Below, one piece after another: positions 61,888-62,706 of a stretch of 64,000 bases of DNA. This DNA comes from a virus (lineage: Duplodnaviria > Heunggongvirae > Uroviricota > Caudoviricetes). The stretch lies in IMG/VR virus record IMGVR_UViG_2880412407_000002; one strand, 5' to 3'. The position numbers and the translations under genes are program-made. Each line of letters begins with the position of its first letter. The first letter of the stretch is position 1. Under the pieces are notes generated by a model, which saw only the letters and a program-made list of their open reading frames with translations, was not told where the DNA came from and did not search any database.

Positions 61888-62706
61888 ATGTGGATTGTGT
61901 TAGTACTGTCACTGTCAACTCTCAGTTGGCATAAGGTAGTGGCTTTTTCATTGTTGACGGTGTCTGTTGTCCTGGCTGTGCTTAATGATATTATTGATTG
62001 GTCGGTGTTATTTTTTGTTGCTACAATCGTTTTTTTTATTATTTTGAAGTTCAACTGGAAATATAACGCCTGGGCTAAATCTATATATGAAGTTGGCATA
62101 GTTTTATCAGCCATAGCATTATCTTTCCATCTATGGCCAGGGTTTCACAATCCTGTAGTGCTAAATTCTGTTACTGTTGGCCCTCAGAGTACTCCCTATA
62201 CAATGTATTTTAATTTTGATAAAGCGCTGGTGCCATTTTTGTTAGTCCTGTGTACATCTTCTTTGTTTAAAAAAGAAGTAAAATCAGAAGTGTCTTTGTG
62301 GAAGTGGGGGGCTCTGTCGCTCTCTGTTCCTCTTATCCTGTTTTTGGCTGTTTTTTTTGGTGGATTAAAGCCAGAGATTCATTTTCCTGAGTGGTTGCCA
62401 GAGTTTATATTGGCTAATTTGTTTTTTGTGTCTCTGGCAGAGGAATCATTATTTAGAGGGTATATTCAATCACGGCTATCAGAAGTAACGTCTCCATTGG
62501 TTGCATTAATTGTGGCGGCTTTGTTGTTTGGTTTTTATCACTATTCAGGTGGTGCTTTACTTGTATTATTTGCCACGTTATCTGGTGTTGTGTATGGATT
62601 GTCATGGATGTGGAGTGGGCGTTTGTGGGTTGCCACCCTTTTCCATTTTGGTTTGAATCTGTGTCACTTGTTATTCTTTACCTATCCATTTTTAAAACAT
62701 AATTGA
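61888..62706 (+). CDS. CPBP-family (CAAX protease / Abi, PF02517-like) intramembrane metalloprotease
   Basis: Multi-TM protein with EExxxR (LAEESLFRG), FxxxH (FGFYHY) and HxxxN (HFGLN) motifs; low GC; directly downstream of Q. Confidence 0.6.
   Translation: MWIVLVLSLSTLSWHKVVAFSLLTVSVVLAVLNDIIDWSVLFFVATIVFFIILKFNWKYNAWAKSIYEVGIVLSAIALSFHLWPGFHNPVVLNSVTVGPQSTPYTMYFNFDKALVPFLLVLCTSSLFKKEVKSEVSLWKWGALSLSVPLILFLAVFFGGLKPEIHFPEWLPEFILANLFFVSLAEESLFRGYIQSRLSEVTSPLVALIVAALLFGFYHYSGGALLVLFATLSGVVYGLSWMWSGRLWVATLFHFGLNLCHLLFFTYPFLKHN

Follow-up and report, generated by a model that had tools for sequence, protein, structure and literature searches.

A CPBP-family gene between the Q antiterminator and the probable late promoter of a lambdoid Escherichia coli prophage

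The CPBP Gene and Its Surroundings

The stretch of DNA analysed here, 64,000 nucleotides (nt) from a virus of the Caudoviricetes (IMG/VR record IMGVR_UViG_2880412407_000002) and called the window throughout, carries near its end a gene for a CPBP-family intramembrane protease directly behind the gene of the antiterminator Q. The CPBP gene is real, correctly classified as such and a typical moron, yet already annotated; what is new is its position between Q and the probable late promoter pR', outside the late operon, and its relationship, as a phage-borne copy, to a solitary chromosomal gene of Enterobacterales. The features on which the description depends are as follows (GC, guanine plus cytosine content; aa, amino acids).

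61356 to 61736, + strand: Q antiterminator gene, 126 aa, Q933W-type (PF06530, 175 bits)
61727 to 62786, no strand: variable low-GC module made up of a spacer, the CPBP gene and an 80-nt tail, delimited by blastn breakpoints; GC 0.361
61879 to 61882, + strand: Shine-Dalgarno sequence GGAG, 5 nt ahead of the ATG, read directly from the sequence
61888 to 62706, + strand: CPBP-family (Rce1-like) intramembrane glutamic endopeptidase gene, 272 aa, homolog of Sakai ECs_1085

The open reading frame (ORF) listing places an ATG at 61888, an in-frame GTG at 61882 and the end at 62706 on the + strand; because GGAG precedes the ATG and all aligned homologs have MW as their N-terminus, the start at 61888 and the length of 272 aa are taken as correct. 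The RefSeq coding sequence WP_000265267.1 has the same coordinates and is labelled 'CPBP family intramembrane glutamic endopeptidase'. An earlier note, made from the letters of this DNA, had described the gene as lying directly after Q and as low in GC, and both descriptions are accurate: the CPBP start is 151 nt past the Q stop codon, and the gene has a GC of 0.38 (0.355 at third codon positions, GC3) against 0.50 for the whole window. Over 119 aa the Q protein shares 81% identity with Q933 (ECs_1203) of Sakai Sp5; genes for RusA and DUF968 lie upstream of it. The order in RefSeq is DUF968, RusA, Q, CPBP, a 65-aa winged-helix ORF, a helix-turn-helix (HTH) gene, tRNA-Ile, tRNA-Arg and tRNA-Arg, followed by TerB, DUF3927, a NanS-p-like esterase, holin, lysozyme and Rz, which places the CPBP gene between Q and the lysis cassette. 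Judged by gene content, this late-region layout is of the Shiga toxin (Stx)-phage type, and the element is a lambdoid prophage of Shiga-toxin-type E. coli.

Family, Predicted Structure and Selection

The protein matches Pfam PF02517 (Rce1-like) over residues 169-258 with 70.6 bits (E 1.4e-19; the gathering cutoff is 22.4 bits), and the three CPBP motifs named in the earlier note are all present as EESLFR at 185-190 (EExxxR), FGFYH at 214-218 (FxxxH) and HFGLN at 253-257 (HxxxN). Across 40 aligned homologs E185, E186, R190, H218 and H253 never vary, and N257 is retained in at least 90%; beyond this catalytic set H81, N88, Y107, N109, D111 and K112 of the periplasmic loop are invariant as well. 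The AlphaFold2 model built with these homologs (predicted local distance difference test, pLDDT, 95.4; predicted template-modelling score, pTM, 0.92) is all-helical and multi-pass, in keeping with the membrane protein that had been proposed, and has helices at 2-32 (kinked), 38-56, 61-79, 137-156, 170-200, 203-217, 223-243 and 246-263. The sole meaningful Foldseek matches in the PDB are SpdC of S. aureus (6u0o, probability 0.99) and archaeal Rce1 (4cad, probability 0.90); template-modelling (TM) scores against these solved CPBP members are just 0.36-0.47, at 14-17% identity. The model predicts a protein whose eight helices cross the inner membrane in an Rce1/SpdC-like fold. Family, motifs, composition, structure and adjacency to Q are all far beyond chance.

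A sequence-profile search of the PDB with the CPBP protein gave no match, and every NCBIfam match was far under its curated cutoff (19-46 bits against 75-435). The best myxosortase (Mrt) matches reached 19-33 bits against cutoffs of 75-325, and the ABC_perm_CPBP model reached 46 bits against 435; the protein falls outside both of these families.

The ratio of nonsynonymous to synonymous substitution rates (dN/dS) of the CPBP gene is 0.12-0.25, with its minimum in the conserved loop at 81-136 and in the catalytic half; the gene is thus under purifying selection and functional. Three diverged prophage alleles (84% and 62% identical) retain every catalytic residue, and they also keep the long loop motif W83-PGFHNPVVL...STPYTMYFNFDKA113.

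A Variable Slot behind Q

Homology to other Q alleles ends at about 61726, 10 nt ahead of the Q stop. Comparison by blastn with three related prophages (L002, L003 and L004) places the left breakpoint at 61726 and the right breakpoint at 62787, 62814 or 62846, which delimits a low-GC module of 1.06 kb. The same slot holds the following in relatives of this prophage.

L002 prophage: ORF6N gene
L003 prophage: gene for a 205-aa hypothetical protein
phiP27 (L017): GIY-YIG gene
L004, a Stx2a phage (L016) and Sakai Sp5: nothing

The slot is thus empty or differently filled in related prophages, as the accessory ('cargo') nature ascribed to the gene in the earlier note would have it. The 151-nt spacer accompanies the CPBP gene (571 genomes against 573), the gene is missing from collinear relatives, and the GC of the module is deviant (0.36 against 0.50). 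On these comparisons the CPBP cassette is classed as a single-gene accessory moron in a recombination-prone slot between Q and pR'.

Position of the Late Promoter

The earlier note had taken the slot for the place where lambdoid phages put highly expressed late cargo such as toxins, and this part of it is not supported, given a pR' homolog downstream of the gene and a stx-equivalent site past the tRNA genes. In Sakai Sp5 and Sp15, Sy et al. located pR' and tR' by differential RNA sequencing (dRNA-seq) and Term-seq; the two are separated by 258 nt, and pR' shows constitutive activity in lysogens (PMC7547250). In Sp5 (locus L018) a promoter TTTACG-16-TATCAT lies at 1012-1039, with a predicted transcription start site (TSS) at A1046 and the end of a strong terminator at about 1303; this promoter is identified with the mapped pR' because the predicted spacing from TSS to terminator is exactly 258 nt, as published. 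The counterparts in the window are two.

62787 to 62821, + strand: pR' homolog, with -35 TTTACG at 62787-62792, -10 TATGCT at 62809-62814 and TSS-equivalent A62821; aligns with Sp5 pR'
62848 to 62869, + strand: GC hairpin followed by U6 in the pR' leader (+28 to +49), free energy (dG) -9 kcal/mol; first terminator-like element past the CPBP gene

The block at 62787-62870 matches that of Sp5 base for base in its key elements, including the conserved GTTAAGAGTGGTTA leader, and the conserved backbone starts at the first base of the pR' -35 (blastn breakpoint 62787). By this homology the late promoter of the prophage very probably lies at 62787-62821, downstream of the CPBP gene, so that this gene is not expected in the Q-antiterminated late transcript. 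A stx-like position, downstream of pR' and tR', is thereby probably not the one that the gene occupies; in Stx phages with the same backbone stx follows the tRNA genes. The hairpin at 62848-62869 is probably leaky, since its homolog in Sp5 is evidently read through (the published pR' transcript is 258 nt). In a Stx1d phage (L006; NZ_CP062204, strain C311, 3616-6974) the order is Q, a CPBP allele of 84% identity, pR', a StxS-like leader and stx1dAB; its pR' homolog, TTTACG...TATACT, has a better -10, and the leader hairpin is degenerate there.

Another arrangement, in which the promoter-like site in the spacer would be pR', the hairpin at 62848 would be tR' and the CPBP gene would be expressed constitutively inside the leader, was considered and rejected, because the mapped pR' and leader of Sp5 have their homolog at 62787-62870.

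Further observations concern the region behind the pR' homolog. A non-coding block of about 200 nt (62787-62992) is conserved in many lambdoid and Stx prophages whose Q alleles differ. It comprises the pR' homolog, a leader with two hairpins (GUGG...CCRC and CCCGC...GCGGG+U6) and further conserved sequence that reaches the 65-aa ORF; its conservation exceeds that of the flanking genes, and it has the look of a small RNA (sRNA) or leader region. An Rfam scan of 61300-64000 returned no family and thus no known-sRNA support for the leader. The 65-aa winged-helix ORF (62993-63190; TrmB-like by a weak Pfam match, phrog_331) is the first ORF past the pR' homolog and is conserved in Stx2a, Stx2e (phiP27) and non-Stx prophages. 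A terminator-like hairpin at its end (63177-63194; dG -10.5 kcal/mol, z -3.4) may be the real tR' of this backbone. In Sp5 (L018, 1069-1096) a strong hairpin with a U-run lies about 24 nt past the TSS, inside the 258-nt transcript, and may serve pausing or Q loading.

Expression of the CPBP Cassette

A promoter scan finds one candidate for the CPBP gene itself.

61828 to 61856, + strand: candidate CPBP promoter TTGCCT-17-GATAAT, predicted by the scan with 9 of 12 consensus matches

The site lies 32 nt ahead of the CPBP ATG and is kept in alleles that are at least 84% identical; a promoter of its own is plausible for the gene on this sequence evidence. The scan found no terminator-like site on the + strand between Q and the CPBP gene, and N-antiterminated early-right transcripts should therefore read into the gene after induction. 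The proposed scheme is that the gene would be transcribed in the lysogen from its own sigma-70 promoter and, after induction, also by read-through of the early-right (pR) transcript through Q; it would probably receive no transcription from pR'.

Prior Annotation and Distribution

The interval 61300-63300 of the window is 100% identical to E. coli O121:H19 chromosomes and 99.4-99.9% identical to those of O26, O145:H28 and O157:H7. The O157:H7 Sakai counterpart, ECs_1085 of prophage Sp4, is annotated as 'phage CAAX amino terminal protease family protein'; EDL933, another reference strain, also carries the gene. It occurs in 573 of 5426 complete E. coli genomes (about 10%), and the match lists that were sampled consist mostly of O157:H7, O55:H7, O26, O103, O111, O121 and O145. 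The protein belongs to PHROGs entry phrog_13291, an uncharacterised phage family. A tblastn search of 50,697 deposited phage genomes (INPHARED) gave no match, and 44 prophage-type contigs of IMG/VR encode the protein; among phage-type sources the gene seems confined to resident prophages, going by these searches. In the literature and supplements searched for ECs1085 and neighbouring tags, no paper and no functional or expression data were found.

Relatives outside This Prophage

Full-length homologs of about 50% identity are present in hundreds of Enterobacterales species. The chromosomal neighbourhoods of 80 homologs, one per species, were sampled; in 35 of these, from three families, the order is modE, modF, a gap of about 220 nt, CPBP, and gpmA or gal. 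The genera with modF-CPBP are Providencia, Photorhabdus, Xenorhabdus, Moellerella, Serratia and Yersinia, and also Hafnia; among Morganellaceae and in Serratia, Yersinia and Hafnia, modE-modF without exception precede the CPBP homolog and share its strand. The remaining chromosomal homologs lie at unrelated loci. From these neighbourhoods the CPBP subfamily is described as a solitary chromosomal gene in many Enterobacterales, whose known E. coli copies all come from prophages.

Two possible partners were considered in these neighbourhoods. A functional link to modF, an orphan ATP-binding cassette (ABC) ATPase, is conceivable, as NCBIfam includes ABC-permease/CPBP fusion proteins; it is unsupported by the gaps of about 220 nt, and with related families only, conserved synteny is the simpler account. 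An alpha/beta hydrolase gene has a convergent overlap with CPBP on plasmids of Xanthomonas, and one is also found 3 kb upstream of CPBP in the window; this was judged a coincidence.

Three diverged prophage copies stand in other surroundings: one (L058) lies behind a phage-82-type Q, with a late promoter and terminator upstream of the CPBP homolog, a second (L059) behind another PF06530 Q, and a third (L060) beside tail genes. Capture of the CPBP gene by prophages and its placement in the post-Q slot are recurrent, and the transcriptional wiring varies from case to case.

Possible Functions

The explanation tentatively put first, which we hold with less than even confidence, is that the moron encodes an envelope protease with an intact active site that protects the lysogen. 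The protein would sit in the inner membrane with its eight helices and would cleave or otherwise neutralise a membrane-inserting peptide, giving bacteriocin, microcin or antimicrobial-peptide immunity in the Abi/McsI sense; classical abortive infection seems less likely. The catalytic residues are intact; proteolytic activity and a protective function are both putative. In favour of protection, prophages repeatedly have the gene in cargo positions, after Q genes of two unrelated families as well as beside tail genes. Its presence in 573 of 5426 complete E. coli genomes, with mostly EHEC-type serotypes in the lists sampled, speaks for protection too. McsI, a CAAX-family protein, alone gave microcin S immunity when expressed in enteropathogenic E. 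coli (EPEC) E2348/69 (PMC3316575), and a solitary CPBP gene can therefore work as an immunity determinant. A more specific version is doubtful: that the gene is a one-gene immunity or exclusion determinant, expressed in the lysogen from its own promoter, that protects lysogens of enterohaemorrhagic E. coli (EHEC) and EPEC against a membrane-targeting weapon of competitors, such as a microcin-S-like class II microcin or another peptide toxin, or against an incoming phage, and that it occupies a hotspot for morons between Q and pR' that had so far escaped notice.

Several results weigh against lysogen protection as the function. The search of the flanks for a cognate peptide or toxin gene, suggested in the earlier note, came back empty: neither the window flanks nor the full prophage late region hold a cognate bacteriocin, peptide, toxin or export gene, and a 41-aa ORF at 62759-62884, which overlaps the promoter and hairpin, is not credible as a peptide gene. 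No recurrent partner gene (toxin, peptide or defence) was found beside the 80 chromosomal homologs, nor in the plasmid contexts of CPBP homologs, and among 72,556 plasmids searched by tblastn the only related E. coli gene was in an EDL933 record. The syntenic position between modF and gpmA or gal is no less compatible with a general physiological role than with toxin-specific immunity, and some CPBP proteins, such as SpdC, work without proteolysis. The candidate promoter is also open to doubt: copies of 55-62% identity have different AT-rich promoter-like upstream regions, so that the site is not positionally conserved, and 9/12 matches are common in AT-rich DNA (13 found against 7.5 expected).

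Unlikely, and next in order, is a role in endogenous maturation, in which the protein, like the myxosortases, MroQ and LnsB, would act on a host substrate (envelope protein, lipoprotein or signalling peptide) by processing or modifying it; the prophage would then simply give E. coli an activity that other Enterobacterales encode chromosomally. The modE-modF-CPBP-gpmA/gal synteny in 35 of 80 species would suit such a role, as would the extra invariant residues of the periplasmic loop and the weak partial matches to the myxosortase and ABC-permease/CPBP models; CPBP enzymes acting on lipidated substrates are described in the literature (PMC11980579, PMC7387801). Against it, all of those NCBIfam matches are far under their cutoffs, there is no linked candidate substrate gene, and E. 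coli, which is normally without the gene, would need a suitable substrate.

Also unlikely is an anti-phage role, whether the membrane protease were to block DNA injection by superinfecting phages (superinfection exclusion, Sie) or to trigger abortive infection; both had been raised in the earlier note. The gene resides in a prophage and recurs in prophage cargo slots, its product is a single membrane protein like known Sie proteins, and PHROGs lists phrog_13291 as an uncharacterised phage family. No PADLOC-DB family, however, matches the CPBP protein at E <= 0.01, nor does any match the 65-aa ORF or the HTH protein behind it, and full-length homologs of about 50% identity are solitary at a conserved non-prophage chromosomal locus in many genera, which argues against a dedicated role. 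The historical 'Abi' label of PF02517 is not known to go back to a demonstrated abortive-infection phenotype.

Late-operon cargo is improbable: the CPBP gene would be the first gene of pR', strongly induced by Q in lytic growth like stx and acting in the lytic cycle or in release. It is physically between Q and the lysis genes, the copy behind the phage-82-type Q has a late promoter and terminator upstream, and there is the promoter-like site in the spacer between Q and CPBP. Against this stand the block homologous to the mapped pR' (of a phage with an 81% identical Q), which is downstream of the gene, the start of the conserved backbone exactly at that pR' -35, the placement of stx past the tRNA genes in same-backbone Stx phages, and a spacer that travels with the CPBP gene and not with related Q alleles.

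Very improbable is a non-catalytic scaffold or regulator that, like SpdC or Abx1, binds and modulates a membrane sensor kinase or other membrane enzyme, as the catalytic residues are strictly conserved in the 40 homologs, which is expected of an active enzyme, and the catalytic half is under strong purifying selection, even though the best structural match is SpdC in complex with SagB (6u0o) and the acid resistance and type III secretion regulator psrA adjoins.

Other Genes in the Region

The HTH/AraC-like gene that starts at 63328 is cut by the window end at 64000; its counterpart in Sakai Sp4 is psrA (ECs1087), a prophage gene already characterised as regulating GadE and type III secretion (PMC13502914). 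A promoter-like sequence ATGATA-16-TATAAT at 63265-63292, just upstream of this gene, is the best match in the scanned region (10/12).

Upstream of Q, a 1-nt deletion in an A-run at about 60598 relative to NZ_CP027435 splits the DUF968 gene (59943-60991) into ORFs at 59943-60704 and 60659-60991, and reflects either a genuine frameshift or an error in sequencing the homopolymer. Upstream of DUF968-RusA-Q lies a hokD-type toxin gene of the type I Hok/Gef kind (59283-59495; PF01848, 79 bits), an arrangement shared with the Qin prophage. Another accessory gene of low GC (0.34), at 57962-58735 on the - strand, encodes the 257-aa alpha/beta hydrolase of RefSeq, ECs_1077 in Sakai; it belongs to phrog_8493 (function uncharacterised) and has no Pfam match at E <= 0.01.

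Implications

Roughly one complete E. coli genome in ten has the CPBP gene, and major EHEC serotypes make up most of the lists that were sampled; if the gene does protect lysogens against microcins, antimicrobial peptides or phages, it would be a prophage-borne factor in the fitness of EHEC in the gut, and such protection would also bear on microcin-producing probiotic strains. The variable slot of this backbone is placed upstream of the probable pR', and genes in the slot should therefore follow an expression programme unlike that of stx; genes found just past Q are not to be assumed to be Q-dependent late cargo.

Comparison with Known Systems

The nearest enzymes are those of the Rce1/CPBP family (PF02517; type II CAAX prenyl endopeptidases, glutamic intramembrane proteases), with which the protein shares the three motifs, a size of about 270 aa and the eight-helix fold; in contrast to Rce1 (MmRce1, 4cad) and SpdC, the subfamily described here has its own conserved periplasmic loop, WPGFHNP...STPYTMYFNFDKA. 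E. coli is not known to have prenylated CAAX substrates. To the myxosortases (MrtX, MrtC and MrtP among others) and the ABC-permease/CPBP fusions there is weak local similarity over the catalytic core, and with all scores under the cutoffs the protein is not a myxosortase; C-terminal sorting-signal substrates are likewise not known from E. coli.

The nearest immunity proteins are McsI, the self-immunity protein for microcin S of E. coli G3/10, and the Abi-type bacteriocin immunity proteins of lactic acid bacteria; PlnI and SkkI are of the same Abi/CPBP type. McsI is likewise a CAAX/CPBP-family protein of E. coli; however, it is 216 aa long, plasmid-borne and encoded beside microcin and export genes, whereas the protein described here is 272 aa long, prophage-borne and free of linked bacteriocin genes.

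The prophage itself is closest to Stx phages of the Sakai Sp5 and 933W type, with which it shares DUF968, RusA, a Q933-type Q, the pR' block, the 65-aa winged-helix ORF, tRNA-Ile/Arg/Arg, the NanS-p-like esterase and the lysis genes. The two differ in where accessory DNA is placed, with the insertion here between Q and pR' and the stx or cargo site of the Stx phages past tR' and the tRNA genes. The Sp5 Q gene overlaps the pR' -35 with its 3' end, whereas in the window a shortened Q of 126 aa is separated from the promoter by about 1.05 kb.

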